60,054 nt of DNA. Source: Gemmatimonadales bacterium. Lineage in GTDB: Bacteria > Gemmatimonadota > Gemmatimonadetes > Gemmatimonadales > GWC2-71-9. The position numbers and the translations under genes are program-made. The stretch lies in NCBI GenBank assembly GCA_046262715.1, contig JBHEMG010000129.1, positions 1-60,054 on the forward strand, written 5' to 3'. Shown piece after piece: positions 45,083 to 53,595 of the stretch (positions are counted from its first letter, which is position 1; each line of letters starts with the position of its first letter). The notes under the pieces are model-generated. The model saw only the letters and a list, made by a program, of their open reading frames with translations, made no database searches and was not told the origin of the DNA.

Positions 45083-45394
45083 ATGAATGACCCACGGAAA
45101 TCACGCGCGCCGTTGATGGACTCGCTCGGACAGCTGTGCGCCGACGGCAAACAGTTGGCTGAATACCTGTGGCAGGTGCCCAAGGACGCCGCGGCGCGCC
45201 AGCAGATTCTCACCCTACTGACGCAAATCGCCGACGAGAGCACCAAGCAGGGGCGCAAAGAGATGCCGAGATTGGTCGAAGAGCTGAAGATCGCCGCGCA
45301 GGCGACTCCTTCTCCCCAGCAGGTCGATGTACTCGTGGACGGCTTCGACCGGCTGACGAAACTCTGGCAGGCCGCAAAGTCCGGATTACTATGA
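45083..45394 (+). CDS. Hypothetical protein
   Basis: 103-aa helical ORF; ATGA overlap with tkt. Confidence 0.7.
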
Positions 45395-47394
45395 CCGAAA
45401 CCGTGGCGCGCGTAGATCTCGACCAACTCTGCATCAACTCCATCCGTGTACTGGCGATGGACGCCGTGCAACAGGCGGATTCGGGGCATCCCGGCACGGC
45501 CATGGCGCTGGCGCCGCTCGCCTACGTGCTCTGGCAACGCCATCTCACGTACAATCCAGCCAATCCGAACTGGATGGATCGCGATCGATTCGTCCTCTCC
45601 GCGGGCCACGCGTGCATGTTGCTGTACAGCGTCCTCTATCTCACCGGATACGACCTCACGCTCGAGGAGATCAAGCAATTCCGGCAGTGGGGCAGCCGCA
45701 CCCCAGGGCATTCCGAGCATGGCGTCACACCCGGCGTGGAAGCAACCACCGGCCCGCTCGGCCAGGGCACGGGCAACGCCGTGGGCATGGCGATTGCCGA
45801 GGCGCAGCTCGCGGCGGCATTCAATCGCCCCGGGCACGACATCATCGATCACCGCACCTACTTCATTGCGTCCGACGGCGACCTCATGGAGGGAATTTCG
45901 CACGAGGCCGCGTCGCTGGCGGGCCACCTCAAGCTGGGCAAGCTCATCGGCTTTTACGACGACAACCGCATCACCATCGACGGCTCCACCGATCTCGCGT
46001 TCTCCGACGATACGTCGAAGCGCTTCGAGTCCTACGGCTGGCACGTGCAGCGCGTCGCCGACGGGAACGACCTGCAAGCGCTCGATGCCGCCATCGCGCA
46101 GGCCGAACGCGTCGCCGATCGCCCTTCGCTGATTATCGTGCGTACACACATCGCCTGGGGCAGCCCGCACAAGCAAGACACCCCCGAGGCGCACGGCGCG
46201 CCGCTCGGGGCCGACGAAATCAAGGCGACAAAACAGAATCTCGGTTGGCCGTCCGTCGAGCCTTTTTATGTGCCGGAGGAAGCGCTGGAGCGGTGGCGCC
46301 AGGCGAAAACACGCGGCGCGCGGCTCGAAGCGGACTGGACGAAGCAATGGAATGCGTATCGGGCGGCCCATCCCGCCCTCGCGGCGGAGCTCGAGCGCCG
46401 CCTGGCAGGCAAGTTGCCGGAAGGCTGGGACGCCGCCATTCCCGTCTTCGGAGTCAAGGATGCCCAGGCCACCCGGGCGGCGTCCGGCAAGGTGCTCAAC
46501 GCCATCGCCACGAAGCTGCCCGAGCTGATCGGCGGCTCGGCGGACCTCACGGGATCGAACAACACAGAGATGAAAGGCGGTGGCGTCTTTTCGGCCACTG
46601 AACGAACCGGCCGCAACTTCCATTTTGGAATTCGCGAGCATGCGATGGGCGCCGCCTTGAACGGCATCGCGCTGCACGGTGGATTCATCCCGTTCGGGGG
46701 CACGTTCCTGATCTTTTCCGATTACATGCGGCCGTCTATTCGTCTCGCGGCGCTGACGCAGCTCCGGCCGATCTACGTTTTCACACACGACTCGATCGGG
46801 CTGGGCGAAGATGGGCCGACGCATCAACCCATCGAGCAGTTGTCCGCGCTACGCGTGATTCCCAACATGACCGTCATCCGGCCCGCGGATCCCACCGAGG
46901 TGGCGGAGGCGTGGCGCGCCGCCATCATCCATCGGGACGGGCCCGTTGCACTGGTATTGACGCGACAGAAAGTCGCCGTGATAGATCGCGCCGCGTACGC
47001 GCCCGCCGCCGGATTGCATCGCGGCGCCTACGTGCTGGCGGGCTCCGCCGATCCCGATGTCGTCCTGATCGGGACCGGCTCGGAAGTAGAGATCGTCCTC
47101 GGAGCCTACGAGAGGCTGAAGGCGGATGGGCGCCGTCCAGCCGCGGTGTCGATGCCCTGCATGGAGTACTTTGCGAAGCAGTCGCAGAGCTATCGCGACG
47201 CGGTGCTGCCGCCGGGCGTCCCACGCATCGCCGTCGAAGCCGCAGCCCCGCAATCGTGGTATCGCTGGGTGGGAGATCGCGGGGTCATCATCGGCATAGA
47301 GCGGTTCGGGGAGTCCGCGCCGTATCAGCGGATCTACAAAGAGTTTGGACTGACGGTAGACCGGGTAGTGGACGCCGCCCGGCAACTCGGCTAG
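45391..47394 (+). CDS. tkt: Transketolase
   Basis: [37 protein letters not shown]. Confidence 0.98.
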
Positions 47395-47406
47395 TTTCTG
47401 CGACAG

Positions 47407-47505
47407 ATGACGCGAGTCTCCATGATGATGCGCCGCGCCTGTTGCTGCTGCCCCATGTGTTGTACGGGGAGCGGACCGATCGGCGCGTCGACATGCGGGA
47501 CATGA
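47407..47505 (+). CDS. Cys/Met-rich leader peptide MTRVSMMMRRACCCCPMCCTGSGPIGASTCGT
   Basis: Translated by hand; 7 Cys and 5 Met in 32 codons; upstream of a terminator. Confidence 0.8.
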   Translation: MTRVSMMMRRACCCCPMCCTGSGPIGASTCGT

Positions 47506-47548
47506 AGTAGCTCGACGGGGCTCCCGCCCCACGAAACGACGCAGCAGA

Positions 47549-47590
47549 CGGCCGCGACTCCTCGCTTCGAGTCGCGGCCGATTTCTTTTT
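47549..47590 (+). terminator. Attenuator-type intrinsic terminator
   Basis: 12-bp stem cggccgcgactc/gagtcgcggccg followed by TTTCTTTTT, ending 19 nt before the next ATG. Confidence 0.88.
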
Positions 47591-47609
47591 CAGGGAGAGG
47601 GTTTCTGGC

Positions 47610-48548
47610 ATGATCGGTATTTATTACGAGCACCCACACTGGTTCGCGCCGCTCTTCGCAGAGCTCGATCGCCGCCGGACGCCGTATACCAGATTGCATG
47701 CGGAGCGCCACCGGTTCGACCCGGGCGATCCCCCTCCCTACCGCCTCGTCTTCAACCGCATGAGCCCATCGGCCTGGCTGCGCGGACATGGTCACGCGGT
47801 CTTCTACACGCACCATTTTCTTGACCACTTGGAGCGATTCGGCGTGCGGGTCATCAACGGCACGCGCGCCTTTCATTCCGAGACGTCCAAAGCGGTTCAG
47901 CTATCGGTGCTGCGCTCGCTCGGCTTGCCGTACCCGCCCACGCGCATCATCAACGATGCGGCAGATGCGCCGTCGGCCGCCGCCGAGCTGCGCTACCCGG
48001 TCGTGGTAAAACCGAACGTCGGCGGGAGCGGCGCGGGCGTGCGCCGTTTCGACGCGCCGGCCGACCTGGCCATTGCCGCGGCGACCGGCGGCCTCGAGCT
48101 CGGCCCCGATCATACCGCGCTGGTGCAGGAGTTCATTCCGTCGGAAGCCGGACGCATCACACGCGTCGAGGTCTTGGGCGGGAAGTTTCTGTACGCAATT
48201 CGCGTGTATTCCTCGGGCGAGACGTACAATCTCTGCCCGGCCGACGTGTGTCAGACTACGGATGGCACGGAGCTGGTGCGCGCGGCGTGCCCGGCAGACG
48301 CCCCGCGCAACGGGTTGCGCGTGGAGGGTTACGATCCGCAACCGGAAGTCGCGCGCCAGGTCGAGCAAATCGCCGCCGCCTGCGGGATCGACGTCGGCGG
48401 CATCGAATACGCGATCGATGACCGTGACGGACGGCTCTTCTATTACGACGTCAATGCGCTGTCGAATTTCGTCGCCGACGCGCCGCGGGTCGTGGGGTTC
48501 GATCCCGTGGCACGGCTGGCCGATTATTTGGAAAGCGAGGCCCGCTGA
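47610..48548 (+). CDS. ATP-grasp ligase (RimK/GshB-like)
   Basis: YPVVVKPNVGGSGAGV, LVQEFIP, YDVNALSNF. Confidence 0.85.
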   Translation: MIGIYYEHPHWFAPLFAELDRRRTPYTRLHAERHRFDPGDPPPYRLVFNRMSPSAWLRGHGHAVFYTHHFLDHLERFGVRVINGTRAFHSETSKAVQLSVLRSLGLPYPPTRIINDAADAPSAAAELRYPVVVKPNVGGSGAGVRRFDAPADLAIAAATGGLELGPDHTALVQEFIPSEAGRITRVEVLGGKFLYAIRVYSSGETYNLCPADVCQTTDGTELVRAACPADAPRNGLRVEGYDPQPEVARQVEQIAAACGIDVGGIEYAIDDRDGRLFYYDVNALSNFVADAPRVVGFDPVARLADYLESEAR

Positions 48549-49591
48549 TGCGCTTCGGGTATTGGTTGCCCGTCTTTGGCGGCTGGCTGCGCAACGTCGA
48601 GGACGAGCGCATGGAAGCGGAGTGGTCGTACGTGCGACGCCTCGCGCGCGCCAGTGAGCGCGCGGGGTTCGATCTGACGCTGATCGCCGAGCTGAATCTC
48701 AACGACATCAAGGGGTCTGATGCTCCGGCCCTCGATGCATGGTCAACCGCCGCGGCGCTCGCCGCGGTCACCGAGCGGCTCGAGATCATGGTCGCCGTGC
48801 GTCCGACATTTCACCCGCCGGCGCTGCTCGCCAAACAGGCCGCCAACATCGACCACATCTCGGGCGGCCGTTTGTCGCTCAATGTAGTGTCGTCGTGGTG
48901 GGCAGAAGAGGCAAAGCAGTATGGCGTCGAGTTCGATACCCACGACGCGCGCTACGCGCGCACCGCCGAGTGGCTGGCCGTGGTCGATGGCTTGTGGACG
49001 GAGCGGCGCTTCAGCTTTTCGGGACAGTACTACCGCGTGGAGGATGCAATTCTCGAACCGAAGCCGCTGCGCCGACCTCGGCCGACGATCTATGCGGGAG
49101 GGGAATCCCCGGCGGCGAAGTCTCTGATCGCACGAGGCTGCGACGGCTACCTGATGCACGGCGATCCGCCCGAGCGCATCGCGGCCAAGATCGCCGACAT
49201 GCGCGCGCTCCGGGAGGCGAGCGCGGTCGAGCCGCTCAGCTTCGGTGCCGCCGGGTACGTCGTCTGCCGCGCCACCGAAAGCGCGGCGCGCCGGGAAGTC
49301 GAGCGGATCACCGACGTGCAGCAGCATGCGGCCGGGTATGCCAATTACGAGCAGTGGCTGGCCAACACGCAGCTGGAGCAGCGGGTCAGTCTCGAGGACT
49401 ACTCCGTGTCGAATCGCGGGCTCAAGGCGGGACTGGTCGGGACGCCCGAGCAGATCGCTGAACGGATTCGCGGCTTTGAGCAGGCGGGACTCGATCTGTT
49501 ACTGTTACAATTCAGCCCGCAGCTCGAAGAAATGGAGCGCTTCGCCGAAGAGGTGATTCCGCTGGTCAACGAGCCAGCTGCCGCGCGATAA
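48548..49591 (+). CDS. LLM flavin-dependent monooxygenase (SsuD/SfnG-like)
   Basis: GFDLTLIAE, AAVTERLEI, IDHISGGRLSLNVV, LVGTPEQIA. Confidence 0.88.
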   Translation: MRFGYWLPVFGGWLRNVEDERMEAEWSYVRRLARASERAGFDLTLIAELNLNDIKGSDAPALDAWSTAAALAAVTERLEIMVAVRPTFHPPALLAKQAANIDHISGGRLSLNVVSSWWAEEAKQYGVEFDTHDARYARTAEWLAVVDGLWTERRFSFSGQYYRVEDAILEPKPLRRPRPTIYAGGESPAAKSLIARGCDGYLMHGDPPERIAAKIADMRALREASAVEPLSFGAAGYVVCRATESAARREVERITDVQQHAAGYANYEQWLANTQLEQRVSLEDYSVSNRGLKAGLVGTPEQIAERIRGFEQAGLDLLLLQFSPQLEEMERFAEEVIPLVNEPAAAR

Positions 49592-50627
49592 GTCCGCCGG
49601 CCTCCCGGCCCGAGCGGACGCACGCCGATACACCGGCGCCGTCGTACCCTGCCCCGGCGATCGCGATCGGCGGCAGGCGGCCGAGGAGCTGTCGCACGGC
49701 GGCGACATGGTGCGCGTGATCGCCGCGATATCTCGGCAAGCCCCGCGTCCAATAGAACACGCGCGACCATAGAGGCTCGCCGCGAACGTCGAGGATGGTG
49801 GCGAGCTGCGCGTGTGCCACGACCGCGGGATCGCCGTCCAACGGCGGAAGATAGGCACGCAGCAATACGTGCCCTGCGGGGGCGCGGCCAGGAAATTTTT
49901 GCGAAGCATACGTGCACGCCCGCAGATGCTCCGACTGCGCGACAAATCCCGCGCCATCCAACGGGCGAGAAAGCTGTTCCGCGCGATACGCAAGCGACAC
50001 GGTGATACTCGGCCCGTACACCACGTCGGCGAGAGTACGGCCGTGCGATACGCCGACACCTTCGAGCAGACGGCCGGCGGCATAGGCGGGCAGCGCGAGG
50101 ATCACGGCGTCGGCCTCGTAGGCGGATCCGCCAGTGATGGCGACGCGCCAGCGCTGCCTCTCCCGAACAAGTCCCGACACGCCTTGCGCGAGCCGTACGG
50201 CGCCCGTGAGCCGCTGCACCAGCGCCGCGACCGGCTGCTGCATCCCCTCGGCGAAGCTGCTGAATCCCGCCGCCATCGCGGACTTCGATGCGTCGATGCC
50301 GAGCAGCGCGGCCGCCTTGCCCTCTTCGAGCGGCTCGAGCGCGGTGCCGTTCCACAGCGCGCTGCCACGTGCTTGTTGGCTGACGACTTGGTCGCCGATC
50401 CCGAGCTCTCGGGCCAATGCGGGGAGCTCCGGCTCTCCCGCAAGAAAGCCGTCGGGGCCGCCCTCGACCAGAAATCCGCTCACCCGCTCGCTGATTACCA
50501 CACCGCCTGCGCGACGCTCACTCTCCAGCAGCGTGATTTCGTGGGCACCCCCGCCGCGGCGCTGCAGCTCCCACGCAGCGGCGAGTCCAGCCAGTCCGGC
50601 ACCCACGACGACGACCTTCACACCCAT
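49566..50627 (-). CDS. hemY: HemY/CgoX porphyrinogen oxidase (short form)
   Basis: VVGAGLAGL, EGGPDGF, LPRY, GAGVSACVRSG; heme operon context. Confidence 0.82.
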   Translation of the reverse strand: MGVKVVVVGAGLAGLAAAWELQRRGGGAHEITLLESERRAGGVVISERVSGFLVEGGPDGFLAGEPELPALARELGIGDQVVSQQARGSALWNGTALEPLEEGKAAALLGIDASKSAMAAGFSSFAEGMQQPVAALVQRLTGAVRLAQGVSGLVRERQRWRVAITGGSAYEADAVILALPAYAAGRLLEGVGVSHGRTLADVVYGPSITVSLAYRAEQLSRPLDGAGFVAQSEHLRACTYASQKFPGRAPAGHVLLRAYLPPLDGDPAVVAHAQLATILDVRGEPLWSRVFYWTRGLPRYRGDHAHHVAAVRQLLGRLPPIAIAGAGYDGAGVSACVRSGREAGGLIARQLAR

Positions 50628-51538
50628 CCCCGCTCGGCAGCCGCCGTTCGAACCACATCGGCGACCGCCGCCACGAGTCCCGGATGATCGTTCAGCGACG
50701 CGGTGCGCTCGAGCTGCACCCCGAGCCGCCTCGCGAGCGCCTGGTACTCGATGTCGATGTCGTACAGGATTTCGACGTGATCGCAAACAAAGCCGATCGG
50801 CACCAGCAGCACGGCGGTACAACCGCTCTTGGCGAGCTCCGTCATCACATCCCCCGCGTCGGGGCCGAGCCATGGATCGGCGGTGGCACCCGCGCTTTGA
50901 TAGGCAACGCGCCAGTGCGGCAGCTGCAAACGACGCGCGACGGCGGTGGCGCTCGCCATGAGCTGCTCCGGATACGGATCGCCCGCGGCGACGATGCGTT
51001 GCGGCAGGCTGTGCGCGGTGAAGATCACTTGCGCGTCCTTGGGTCGCGGGAATCGTTGCAGCGCCCGCGTAACCCCGTCAGCCACGGCGTCGAGAAAGCG
51101 CGGATGCTCGCACCAGCTCCGTACCAGCGCGGTTTCGATCTGACCGGCGGGCTGGATCGCTTCGAGCAGCTTCTTCTCGTACGCACCGACCGACATGCTC
51201 GAGTAGTGCGGGGCCATGACGACTCCGACGATGCGGTGATGCCCTGCCTGCCGAATAGCCGCGACCGTGTCATTGATATAGGGGTGCCAGTGTCGCATCC
51301 CGACATAGGTCTGAAACCCGGAGCCCAGCCCGCGTCCTACCGCCGCGGCCTGCGCGCGTGTGCGCTCGAGAATGGGAGAGCGCCCGCCGATGCGGGCATA
51401 GCGGGCGCGGATCTCTTCCACGAGCTGTGGTGTGGTCGGCCGGCCGCCGCGGATGTCCATGAGGTAGGGCTCGACGTCGCTTATGCTCCCGGGCCCGCCG
51501 TACGCCATGACAAGGACGGCGACCTGCTCACGCGCCAT
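50618..51538 (-). CDS. hemH: Ferrochelatase (coproporphyrin type inferred from context)
   Basis: MAYGGP, GMRHWHP, FTAHSLP, WLGPD, GFVCDHVEILYDID. Confidence 0.95.
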   Translation of the reverse strand: MAREQVAVLVMAYGGPGSISDVEPYLMDIRGGRPTTPQLVEEIRARYARIGGRSPILERTRAQAAAVGRGLGSGFQTYVGMRHWHPYINDTVAAIRQAGHHRIVGVVMAPHYSSMSVGAYEKKLLEAIQPAGQIETALVRSWCEHPRFLDAVADGVTRALQRFPRPKDAQVIFTAHSLPQRIVAAGDPYPEQLMASATAVARRLQLPHWRVAYQSAGATADPWLGPDAGDVMTELAKSGCTAVLLVPIGFVCDHVEILYDIDIEYQALARRLGVQLERTASLNDHPGLVAAVADVVRTAAAERGWV

Positions 51539-52550
51539 GCACCAGATCCACGACCGCGCGTACCGCCGCGACGTCGGTCTCGGGCAGGACGCCGTGGCCG
51601 AGGTTGAAAATGTGCCCAGGCCGCCCCGCCGCCTGGCGGAGGATGTCCTGGACTTGCCGATCGCGCTCGGCCGGCGGCGCGAGCAACGCGACGGGCTCGA
51701 GGTTCCCCTGGATGGCGCGATTGCCGATGCGCGCCCACGCGGCGTCGAGCGGCAGCCGCCAATCGATGCTGATGACGTCGCCGCCTGCCGACGCGAAGTC
51801 CTCGAGGAACGTGGCCGTCCCCGTGCCGAAGTGAATGAGCGGGACGCCGGAAGCAGCCGCGAGTGCGAGCGCCCGGCGGCTGTGTGGCTGCACGTATGTC
51901 CGATAGTCCTGCGGCGACAGGCATCCCACCCAGCTGTCGAACATCTGCAGCGCTTGTGCGCCCGCGCGCGCCTGAGCGACCAAGTAGGTCCCGATCAGCT
52001 CCGCAAATTTCCCGAGTAAGCGGTTCCATGCGTCGGGGTGCTGATACATGAAGGTTTTCGTCTTGGTGAACGTGCGACTCGCGCCACCCTCGATCGCGTA
52101 ACTGGCAAGGGTGAACGGCGCACCGGCGAATCCAATCAACGGGATGTCGGTGGGGAGTGCGCGGCGCGCGAGTCGGATGGCGTCCATGACGTAGCCCAGC
52201 TCCGCCTCGACATTGAATGCAGGCAACCGCTCGACGTCCGACGCGTCGCGAATAGGGCGCGCAACAATAGGGCCTTCGCCGGGCTTGAACTCCAAACCCA
52301 GCCGCAGCGGCTCGAACGGCAGCAGGATGTCGGCGAACAAGATCGCCGCGTCCACATGCAGCTTGATCGGCTGCAGCGTGACCTCGGCGGCGAGCTCCGG
52401 GTTGCGGCAGATTTCGAGGATGGAATGCCGCTGTCGCAGCTTGCGGTATTCGGGCATGTACCGTCCCGCCTGCCGCATGAACCAAACGGGTGTGACGTCG
52501 GTGCGCTCCCGACGGCACGCTTTAAGAAATCGCAGGCTGTGAGGTCTCGT
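51528..52550 (-). CDS. hemE: Uroporphyrinogen decarboxylase (start uncertain)
   Basis: FLKACRR..TPVWFMRQAGRY, FADIL, GAPFTLASY, HIFNLGHG. Confidence 0.95.
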   Translation of the reverse strand, partial: TRPHSLRFLKACRRERTDVTPVWFMRQAGRYMPEYRKLRQRHSILEICRNPELAAEVTLQPIKLHVDAAILFADILLPFEPLRLGLEFKPGEGPIVARPIRDASDVERLPAFNVEAELGYVMDAIRLARRALPTDIPLIGFAGAPFTLASYAIEGGASRTFTKTKTFMYQHPDAWNRLLGKFAELIGTYLVAQARAGAQALQMFDSWVGCLSPQDYRTYVQPHSRRALALAAASGVPLIHFGTGTATFLEDFASAGGDVISIDWRLPLDAAWARIGNRAIQGNLEPVALLAPPAERDRQVQDILRQAAGRPGHIFNLGHGVLPETDVAAVRAVVDLVHGA

Positions 52551-53595
52551 GGGCGATCAAGATCGTGTCGCCGTCCAGTTTCACCTGAAACGTCGCCACG
52601 GAATGCACCGGAGGACCGCCGAGGACGCGGCCGGTCTCGAGCGAGAACACACCTTCGTGCCACGGACAGGTGACGGCGCAGCGCGCGGGATCGATGGTGC
52701 CCTCCGACAAGCTGGCTCGGGCGTGTGTGCAGCGATTCGCGATGGCGTACACGGTGCCATTGACGTTGAACAGCGCGACCGCCTCGTTCGCGGCATACAC
52801 GCGCTTCGCCGCGCCCGGCGGCAAATCGGCCAGACTCGCGACCGGCGTAAAGCCGTCGTCGCGCATCGGACGCCGCCCCAACGACTGCGCCGCTCCCGCA
52901 CCGCCGAGCGTGTCGAGCATGTCCCAGAGCGACATTTGCACGCATGTGAAGGTGGGCGTATCGCGCAGCGTGTAGGAGGACGCCTCGCTTTCGCGCAGCT
53001 CCATCACGAGATCGAGGAATTCGCCGGGGTTGTCGCCCTCGAACGCAACGATGAATTCCTGATCGTCGAGTCCGTATGAATACGTCGTGTTCAACCGGAT
53101 CGTGGGATATTTGCGGCCGACGCGGACGTGCTCGTCCATCATGCGCTGGCGCTCAGGCTTGGGAAGCGCATACCAGGCGCGCGTTTTGATGAATGGATAC
53201 ACGAACAGATATTTGGCGGCGCTGGGCTGAATGACGAGACGCTGCTCCTGATGCTGGTCGGCGGGGAATTCGTAGATCGAGCGGCGCGTCATCGCCAAAA
53301 AGCTATACGGCACGGACAGATAGGCGCCGAGATCGGTGCGGTTCAGCGCCGTCTGCAGCTCCACGAGGGGATCGAGATCTTCCGCGACCTGCCAGAGCAG
53401 GAAGTCGGTGTCGCCCCGGATGCCGACCAGCCCATAGGGACGCAGCAGGAGCCGGCCGTTATAGCGCTCGAGCGTCTCCCCGAACTCGAGCTTGCCGGCG
53501 GCCTGGCGCTCGGCGGTCAGCCGCCGCCAGGCGGGATCCAGCTTGTAAAACGCGTAGCGGACGACTTGGCGCTTTTCCGATTTGACCTCAGGCAT
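52522..53595 (-). CDS. chdC: Coproheme decarboxylase (chlorite dismutase family) fused to a Rieske domain
   Basis: YPFIK, WY, proximal EH, GLDDQEF; C-terminal CTH...CPWH. Confidence 0.85.
   Translation of the reverse strand: MPEVKSEKRQVVRYAFYKLDPAWRRLTAERQAAGKLEFGETLERYNGRLLLRPYGLVGIRGDTDFLLWQVAEDLDPLVELQTALNRTDLGAYLSVPYSFLAMTRRSIYEFPADQHQEQRLVIQPSAAKYLFVYPFIKTRAWYALPKPERQRMMDEHVRVGRKYPTIRLNTTYSYGLDDQEFIVAFEGDNPGEFLDLVMELRESEASSYTLRDTPTFTCVQMSLWDMLDTLGGAGAAQSLGRRPMRDDGFTPVASLADLPPGAAKRVYAANEAVALFNVNGTVYAIANRCTHARASLSEGTIDPARCAVTCPWHEGVFSLETGRVLGGPPVHSVATFQVKLDGDTILIAHETSQPAIS

Follow-up and report, generated by a model that had tools for sequence, protein, structure and literature searches.

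The classical attenuators of Proteobacteria (trp, his, leu, thr, ilv, and pheA) are built from mutually exclusive 1:2, 2:3, and 3:4 helices, and those of thr and ilv sense more than one amino acid. In the Firmicutes, S-box (SAM-I) riboswitches and cysteine (Cys) and methionine (Met) T-boxes rely on a structured RNA that senses S-adenosylmethionine or uncharged transfer RNA (tRNA) directly. Leader-peptide attenuators of trp and ilvB have also been described in Actinobacteria, in comparative work that reports no terminators at mycobacterial Cys leaders (PMC1262725). The polycysteine leaderless short open reading frames (sORFs) of mycobacteria, termed the “Cys ribulon”, precede several cysteine/sulfur operons that are described as coordinated by ribosome stalling, and the case analyzed there is translational, acting by unmasking of a Shine-Dalgarno sequence (Canestrari et al., 2020, bioRxiv 10.1101/834739). 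A further Cys-codon leader, uORFC-8-2 upstream of cysS in Rhodobacterales, has been predicted to be a ribosome-mediated attenuator with tandem Cys codons and a terminator stem followed by a U run (Brewer et al., 2021, PMC8632094). The element considered here lies between a transketolase gene (tkt) and a two-gene ATP-grasp/monooxygenase operon on a contig of a Gemmatimonadales metagenome-assembled genome (MAG; 2.83 Mb, 88% complete), of which a stretch of 60,054 nucleotides (nt), hereafter the window, was analyzed; the closest public loci all carry Gemmatimonadales or Gemmatimonadetes MAG labels. Comparison of this leader with its relatives argues, at a probability of roughly 80%, for a classical ribosome-mediated transcription attenuator with a Cys-responsive leader peptide. 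Sensing of Met is plausible, with the odds about even, and would be less general than that of Cys. The leader is made up of the following features, of which hairpin P1 is taken from minimum free energy folds.

47407-47505, + strand: leader sORF of 32 codons, encoding MTRVSMMMRRACCCCPMCCTGSGPIGASTCGT and ending at the stop codon 47503-47505.
47422-47430 and 47455-47457, + strand: Met codons of the sORF.
47440-47451, 47458-47463, and 47494-47496, + strand: Cys codons of the sORF.
47416-47501, + strand: predicted hairpin P1 (regions 1:2), with a 5' strand at 47416-47454, which carries Met and Cys codons, and a 3' strand at 47466-47501.
47455-47465, + strand: apical loop of P1, formed by the M-C-C codons.
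47465-47487, + strand: region 2, the predicted 5' strand of the antiterminator, CGGGGAGCGGACCGATCGGCGCG, which includes the cross-phylum GAGCGG motif.
47517-47530, + strand: small hairpin GGGGC-UCCC-GCCCC directly 3' of the sORF stop.
47541-47560, + strand: region 3, the flank plus the terminator 5' arm, whose partner is either region 2 (antiterminator) or 47569-47580 (terminator).
47549-47590, + strand: intrinsic terminator, with 5' arm 47549-47560, loop 47561-47568, 3' arm 47569-47580, and T-tract 47581-47590.
47593-47601, + strand: purine-rich ribosome-binding site GGGAGAGGG, ahead of the ATG at 47610.

An earlier note on this DNA had described a 32-codon Cys/Met sORF and, before the ATP-grasp gene's ribosome-binding site, a 12-bp stem with a U-tract, and both were found as described. 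The sORF holds 7 Cys (22%) and 5 Met (16%) codons, as compared with 0.97% and 1.33% of codons in the long frames of its own genome, and the terminator stem (47549-47580) has 12 pairs, 10 of them G-C, and an 8-nt loop, followed by ATTTCTTTTT. With a hairpin energy of -25.3 kcal/mol, it is the one terminator-like site in 46800-48000, where shuffled regions average 0.6 sites, and its arm motif forms a hairpin at a single site in the genome. Scanning the same genome for a Cys-run short frame combined with a strong hairpin and a T-run gave 14 candidates among 86 Cys-run frames, the focal one having the strongest hairpin of the 14 (-26.4 kcal/mol); no further copy among them was convincing, and two that were inspected (C75 and C33) sit within coding sequence.

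This leader resembles the classical attenuators in having a short frame of regulatory codons, helices predicted to exclude one another, an intrinsic terminator ahead of the first structural gene, and reference to more than one amino acid. It departs from them in that the codons are those of Cys and Met, in that the putative targets belong to sulfur scavenging and assimilation and not to the pathway of the sensed amino acid alone, in that the sORF has no Shine-Dalgarno sequence and begins about 9 nt past a -10-like box, and in its hosts, which are Gemmatimonadota, Acidobacteriota, and their neighbors, with no Rfam leader family. Like the mycobacterial leaders it has consecutive Cys codons and stands before several operon types. 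Judged by the mycobacterial criterion (a leaderless frame with at least two consecutive Cys codons), the codons are present and the frame may be leaderless, to judge from the position of the -10-like box. The two nevertheless differ, as the terminator and antiterminator are conserved here, Met is co-enriched, and there is no sequence relationship; since the predicted read-out differs though the sensing is alike, the focal leader is not placed among the mycobacterial translational attenuators. The pairing of a Cys-codon frame with a terminator is also common to uORFC-8-2, both being predictions, although uORFC-8-2, compared here by its published description, has two Cys codons only, targets Cys-tRNA synthetase, and is confined to Alphaproteobacteria. 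As in S-box and T-box systems, sulfur amino-acid genes would be controlled through a terminator and antiterminator in RNA, but the proposed sensor is a translating ribosome, and a scan of 46900-48100 against Rfam at E-values up to 10 gave nothing near a gathering score and no riboswitch, leader, or small RNA family. A literature search found no Cys/Met leader attenuators for Gemmatimonadota, for Acidobacteriota, or for sfnG/ssuD-like genes, although the motif lists of large non-coding RNA surveys (e.g., PMC8632094) could contain the element.

The proposal of the earlier note that Cys/Met-rich sORFs be sought upstream of homologous operons was borne out across phyla. An ATP-grasp profile search of one-genome-per-species contigs returned 569 related stretches, and the best 80, which were used, span Gemmatimonadota, Acidobacteriota (Terriglobia, Ca. 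Angelobacter, Pyrinomonadaceae, and Vicinamibacterales), Armatimonadota, Methylomirabilota, and others. By a fixed criterion, applied within 900 nt upstream to the 76 loci having 250 nt or more of upstream sequence (4 being too short), a Cys/Met-run short frame precedes the ATP-grasp gene on the operon strand at 60/76 loci and on the opposite strand at 8/76. Closer to the focal genome, an ATP-grasp orthologue is clear in 16 of 41 genomes (its own and 40 relatives), and at each of the 11 same-genus loci whose upstream sequence suffices, among them the focal one, tkt is followed by a Cys/Met sORF that reads M..(T)M.M(R/C)C..C..MCC. The order after the sORF in 10 same-genus relatives is hairpin, SsuE-like flavin mononucleotide (FMN) reductase, ATP-grasp, and monooxygenase. 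Among other families, two loci have a Cys sORF and terminator immediately before the ATP-grasp gene with no tkt upstream, and at a third the terminator is present and the sORF is not clear. One sORF in these sets, that of locus L042, is identical to that of L114 (genome G107), and the two may be one genome; L042 accounts for 1/18 rows of A2, 1/22 rows of A3, 1/44 of the duplex and fold loci described below, 1/46 of the class-comparison loci, and 1/76 of the wide loci. Four genomes are flagged as unpublished, namely G018 (L013), G009 (L020), G107 (L114), and G172 (L129), and no claim depends on them alone.

What is kept within the frame is its regulatory codons. The Met/Cys run is the sole conserved part of the peptide, which matched no NCBIfam family; insertions and deletions (indels) before or within the run are multiples of 3, and conserved Cys positions show synonymous T/C differences in the same-genus alignment, the Cys codons of 17 same-genus leaders being TGT 50 times and TGC 49 times. 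Indels directly after the run are not multiples of 3, so that leaders differ in their C-terminal peptide and in where the stop falls. Directly after the run, GAGCGG(A/C)C is kept at the nucleotide level across phyla; it is read in frames 0, 1, and 2 within the focal genus (as TGSG, RGAD, and GRRT/GERT), and in other phyla the reading is ERP or ERT. Because these nucleotides are kept in shifting frames, they would form an RNA element inside a frame that is constrained only by its regulatory codons. Most leaders of the ATP-grasp operon show a strong enrichment of Met codons. Separately, seven Acidobacteriota leaders (L063, L074, L077, L080, L083, L089, and L108) have in common an N-terminal stretch, ..NPA(S/F)A(S/R)NM.., some 40 nt ahead of the Cys run, and the same leaders show a CUGAGC...CUCAG pairing across the sORF stop codon, both of which fall outside the simple three-region model outlined below.

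The second line of evidence concerns the terminator and its competitor. Terminators were detected in 46/48 of the leaders examined, and two of the 46 were misdetections and were dropped. In Acidobacteriota the terminator has the form GGCCGCUC-loop-GAGCGGCC-U run, so that the GAGCGGCC found within the sORF repeats the 3' arm of that terminator; in Gemmatimonadales, GAGCGGACGAUC pairs with GAUCGGCCGC, which comprises the flank and base of the terminator 5' arm. The 40 nt that follow the last Cys codon were paired with the 5' arm plus 8 nt in 44 leaders and compared with 300 shuffles, whereupon z was below -2 at 30/44 loci, with a median of -2.6. The focal duplex, 47465-47487 with 47541-47560, reaches -23.3 kcal/mol as compared with -16.2 kcal/mol for shuffled sequence (z -2.5, p 0.017). 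When leaders were sorted by their three terminator classes (GGCCGCGA, GGCCGCUC, and CCGGCCCCCUCUCC), the cognate class of post-Cys segment gave the most stable duplex each time (-22.4, -21.1, and -27.2, respectively, vs. -17.2 to -21.5 for non-cognate duplexes). Given its complementarity to the terminator 5' arm and its co-variation with that arm across the three classes, region 2 is read as the antiterminator. The earlier note had placed the competing pairing elsewhere, between the Cys codons CTGCTGC (47445-47451) and GCAGCAG (47541-47547); the letters and the pairing are present (-14.4 kcal/mol), but conservation failed, none of 18 same-genus leaders reaching z < -2, and CUGCUGC/GCAGCAG was rejected as a conserved switch. 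The conserved competitor of the terminator is instead 47465-47487 with 47541-47560.

Folding of the RNA as far as the terminator loop, either naked or with a ribosome placed on it, suggests that two architectures exist. Gemmatimonadota-type leaders were predicted to form the antiterminator in 3/19 cases when naked and in 16/19 when a ribosome occupied the first Cys codon, whereas for the other leaders the corresponding counts were 25/25 and 24/25. For the focal leader, the fraction of the arm held in the antiterminator rises from 0 in the naked RNA, where the predicted fold is P1, which locks region 2 away, to 0.75 with the ribosome at the first Cys codon. A ribosome placed at the stop codon allowed the antiterminator in 0/41 leaders, a result that holds by construction because region 2 is then masked. 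The small hairpin at 47517-47530 keeps its position in most same-genus leaders while its stem letters change (GGGC/GCCC, AGGGC/GCCCU), and may be a pause element or spacer.

The third line of evidence comes from a search with a covariance model of the Gemmatimonadota leader (R1), alongside which an Acidobacteriota model (R2) was used. R1 finds matches in 40/151 genomes of the family, a count that takes in G107 and G172, and a single site in the focal genome, 47457-47590 (E 8.5e-29). Of the R1 loci examined, 18/29 precede the ATP-grasp operon (L114 is among the 18; L129 is among the 29 and not the 18); the weak loci L134, L138, L139, and L140, together with L129, were set aside. At six further R1 loci a Cys-run sORF and a terminator stand ahead of other genes, as follows.

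R1 target: a CysK/M-like cysteine synthase with CysG-N.
R1 target: CysH (284 bits, above cut-off) with CysG-N.
R1 target, two loci: methanethiol-oxidase-like proteins.
R1 target: a small protein whose carbonic-anhydrase-like match is weak.
R1 target: a rhodanese-like protein.
L122 1637-2164, L132 1630-2148, and L137 1628-2839: coordinates, in family relatives, of carbonic-anhydrase-like and methanethiol-oxidase-like genes in operons behind Cys leaders.

All six of these leaders show the predicted stall-dependent antiterminator. This association with sulfur genes, being independent of the focal operon, is the strongest support for the putative sensing role, and the carbonic-anhydrase-like and methanethiol-oxidase-like targets hint at scavenging of volatile sulfur (carbonyl sulfide/carbon disulfide and methanethiol) under sulfur limitation. 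R2, searched in 5 genomes, gave a full-length match in 4 and a partial one in 1, with no second full-length copy.

Taken together, these comparisons permit a model of how the leader may operate, in which the start of transcription, translation of the sORF, ribosome stalling, and the response in vivo are inferred from sequence. Transcription would continue from tkt or be initiated at the sORF ATG, or slightly ahead of it, by a promoter lying within the end of tkt, and the leader would report how much charged tRNA-Cys, and probably tRNA-Met, is available. With ample Cys and Met, the ribosome would traverse the sORF, cover region 2 (47465-47487), and halt at 47503-47505; with region 2 covered, region 3 (47541-47560) could pair with 47569-47580 to give the terminator, and transcription would end at the T-tract. 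Under shortage of Cys or Met, the ribosome would stall on the Met/Cys codons of the P1 5' strand and loop (47422-47463) and block P1, leaving region 2 free to pair with region 3 as the antiterminator. RNA polymerase could then continue into the genes for the ATP-grasp protein and the SfnG-like monooxygenase, presumed sulfur scavengers. If the sORF is not translated at all, P1 would sequester region 2 and the terminator would form, which constitutes the four-region Gemmatimonadota form; Acidobacteriota relatives lack P1, and their naked RNA, with three regions, is therefore predicted to read through. Ribosome-mediated attenuation as proposed in the earlier note is supported by the cross-phylum conservation of sORF, terminator, and antiterminator and by the occurrence of such leaders before sulfur genes.

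The start of the leader involves the end of the gene upstream, for which the relevant features are these.

45169-47394, + strand: tkt, transketolase (Transketolase_N E 9.4e-152, with pyrimidine-binding and C-terminal domains); the listed GTG start may be too far upstream.
47392-47394, + strand: stop codon TAG of tkt, which overlaps the leader's candidate -10 box.
47369-47397, + strand: candidate promoter in the 3' end of tkt, weak, with TGGACG at 47369-47374, a 17-nt spacer, and TAGTTT at 47392-47397.

A TANNNT box lies 4-14 nt upstream of the sORF start in 33/42 leaders, and in 25 of the 42 a TTGACA-like box (at least 4/6 positions) stands 16-19 nt from it. The focal -10-like box is 9 nt before the sORF ATG, and throughout the focal genus the TAG of this box is the tkt stop codon. 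This spacing suggests a leaderless or very-short-leader sORF, and read-through from tkt with re-initiation is possible.

A number of observations weigh against the attenuation model or against parts of it. When the post-Cys segment was shuffled, 54% of shuffles still paired at least half of the 5' arm (observed, 40/44), and the fold-state test is thus weakly discriminating. Among 18 same-genus sequences, P1 has 80% of cells paired as compared with 33-49% for slid partners, but 79/500 shuffles do equally well, and the antiterminator within the genus has 81% of cells paired, which 59/500 shuffles equal (slid partners of both helices, 24-49%). The same-genus helices are hence conserved and not co-varying, covariation being not significant, and because it fails to exceed shuffles within the genus the structural argument is placed on the cross-lineage comparisons. 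Moreover, focal region 3 is 3 nt shorter than that of relatives, the focal terminator (-25.3) is slightly more stable than the antiterminator (-23.3), and a single copy of the element was found in the 88%-complete assembly. Of the 76 loci in the wide comparison, 16 miss the criterion; inspection by eye showed a leader at 4 of them, a clear lack of one at 4, and extra genes upstream at 6. At the start of the leader, just 4/42 leaders have a Shine-Dalgarno-like motif, the focal sORF not being one of them, a strict consensus promoter scan of the focal region returned none, and the focal -35/-10 boxes match at about 7/12 consensus positions. Lastly, some related leaders have no Met codons, so that Met sensing is not general; of the dual Met/Cys sensor envisaged in the earlier note, the Cys part is supported, and the Met part is plausible.

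Alternatives to attenuation have to be weighed against the same evidence. One is that the element is an RNA-only switch, in which a metabolite or protein would bind a UG-rich run together with the GAGCGG segment, whether or not the sORF is translated. The conservation of region 2 and the terminator as nucleotides fits such a switch, as does the two-helix minimum of the Acidobacteriota form, and the overuse of TGT in the run (50.5% vs. 24.6% genome-wide) could mean an RNA motif; however, the in-frame start, Cys run, and stop are kept across phyla despite very different surrounding sequence, indels in the run preserve the frame, TGT and TGC interchange at conserved Cys positions, no conserved aptamer-like domain was seen besides P1 and the terminator, covariation within the genus is not significant, and Rfam gave no match at the E-value used. 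An RNA-only switch is accordingly regarded as highly improbable. It is also conceivable that the hairpin is a plain tkt terminator and the sORF either a chance frame or a stable, metallothionein-like Cys-rich micropeptide with no regulatory link. Cys-rich peptides are able to bind metals, and in the focal genus 12 nt, devoid of a terminator, separate the tkt stop from the sORF, which leaves the hairpin to end tkt transcripts there as well. Yet tkt stands upstream only in the focal genus and in G107 of another genus, and the element is not merely a tkt terminator, as elsewhere in other families and phyla the sORF and terminator occur without it, behind TTGACA-like and TANNNT boxes of their own. 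The element moreover is always immediately followed by the ATP-grasp operon or by other sulfur genes, with which it shares the strand, a segment within the sORF is complementary to the terminator arm, the peptide past the Cys run is not conserved although the nucleotides are, in shifting frames, and the sORF has no NCBIfam match, all of which makes this explanation very unlikely.

A third alternative retains the Cys-run sORF as sensor and moves the read-out to the ribosome-binding site, as in mycobacteria, instead of termination. This is the sole mechanism reported as shown experimentally for Cys-run sORFs (Canestrari et al., bioRxiv 10.1101/834739), and at the focal locus the T-tract adjoins the purine-rich ribosome-binding site, with which weak pairing is possible in the full-length fold. 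However, a canonical G+C-rich stem and T-tract lies between sORF and ribosome-binding site wherever a terminator was detected, and the conserved complementarity targets the terminator arm and not the ribosome-binding site, so that a translational read-out has very little to commend it. Least credible of all is that the sORF is the precursor of a ribosomally synthesized and post-translationally modified peptide acted on by the ATP-grasp protein and monooxygenase, the hairpin tuning the precursor:enzyme ratio, for although some ribosomal peptides are matured by ATP-grasp enzymes, a hairpin commonly follows the precursor gene in such clusters, and the focal protein has a faint match to the ribosomal peptide maturase TIGR04187 (E 4e-4, 19.7 bits, cut-off 350), its best matches are RimK/LysX-type ligases, no leader or core is conserved beyond Cys and Met, the C-terminal half shifts frame between close relatives, similar leaders head cysH and cysK/M operons with no ATP-grasp gene, and no transporter or protease genes were seen in the focal operon. 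The attenuator with a Cys-responsive leader peptide remains the preferred interpretation.

The genes that such an attenuator would control are two, bounded downstream by a convergent gene.

47610-48548, + strand: RimK-like ATP-grasp gene, the first regulated gene.
48548-49591, + strand: luciferase-like flavin monooxygenase gene, the second regulated gene (PF00296 E 4.4e-66, 223.8 bits).

The monooxygenase scores 264 bits against TIGR04021 (SfnG), for which the equivalog cut-off is 383, and in every lineage tested the partner is SfnG/SsuD-like at 248-264 bits, below that cut-off. Its closest solved structure is 3rao, a putative luciferase-like monooxygenase (441 bits), followed by 8vw6, an alkanesulfonate monooxygenase (357 bits), and 8t0u, SfnG (193 bits). 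By homology, the protein belongs to the SfnG/SsuD (sulfone/sulfonate) group and the operon is sulfur-linked; one lineage adds to the operon a CuyA-like pyridoxal phosphate enzyme, and relatives have an SsuE-like FMN reductase. The ATP-grasp protein, which matches RimK/LysX-type ligases only weakly (62 and 54 bits), falls in an uncharacterized RimK-like family. The organosulfur label given to the operon in the earlier note is thus favored by the SfnG/SsuD-type homology of the monooxygenase, but its score lies below the SfnG cut-off and the ATP-grasp protein offers weak matches only. Alignment of the ATP-grasp proteins shows invariant cysteines C209, C214, and C227 in an NLCPADVC...C motif, which may be a metal or redox site, atypical for RimK-like ligases. 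The SsuE-like reductase gene, which occupies the interval from terminator to ATP-grasp gene in 10 same-genus relatives (e.g., L002 965-1501), is not at focal 47590-47610, and a tblastn search of the 88%-complete focal assembly did not find it; the focal flavin monooxygenase would therefore require another reductase. Elsewhere in the window, 52522-53595 (- strand) encodes a HemQ-like protein of the chlorite-dismutase family fused to a C-terminal Rieske [2Fe-2S] domain, a fusion that looks unusual for a heme-pathway enzyme, and near it 49566-50873 (- strand) encodes a protoporphyrinogen/coproporphyrinogen-oxidase-like flavoprotein.

The mechanism proposed for this leader is classical; what is new is the co-enrichment of Met, the phyla concerned, the scavenging operon as target, and the existence of two natural architectures. 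The value of the finding hence lies in new lineages, a regulon, and a lead to gene function, the principle itself being textbook. Gemmatimonadota and Acidobacteriota are abundant and mostly uncultured soil phyla whose regulation is almost uncharted, and a survey from 2010 noted an assigned function for hardly any of the attenuators predicted in Acidobacteria (PMC2965389). For both phyla the element offers a testable mechanism of sulfur sensing, which would be the terminator-based counterpart of the translational Cys attenuators of mycobacteria, and the four-region and three-region designs make opposite predictions for loss of the start codon. It would also provide the widespread ATP-grasp/monooxygenase pair with a functional label, as genes induced by shortage of Cys/Met. 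Going further, it is possible, if on balance doubtful, that Cys/Met leaders with a shared GAGCGG-type antiterminator constitute a phylum-spanning “sulfur ribulon”, serving as a principal sensor of sulfur limitation in Gemmatimonadota and, for at least one operon, in Acidobacteriota and neighboring soil phyla. Were this true, the ribulon would control sulfate assimilation (cysH, cysK/M, and cysG) along with the scavenging of volatile and oxidized organosulfur, and the RimK-like ATP-grasp/SfnG-like monooxygenase pair would represent a new cross-phylum pathway of sulfur starvation.

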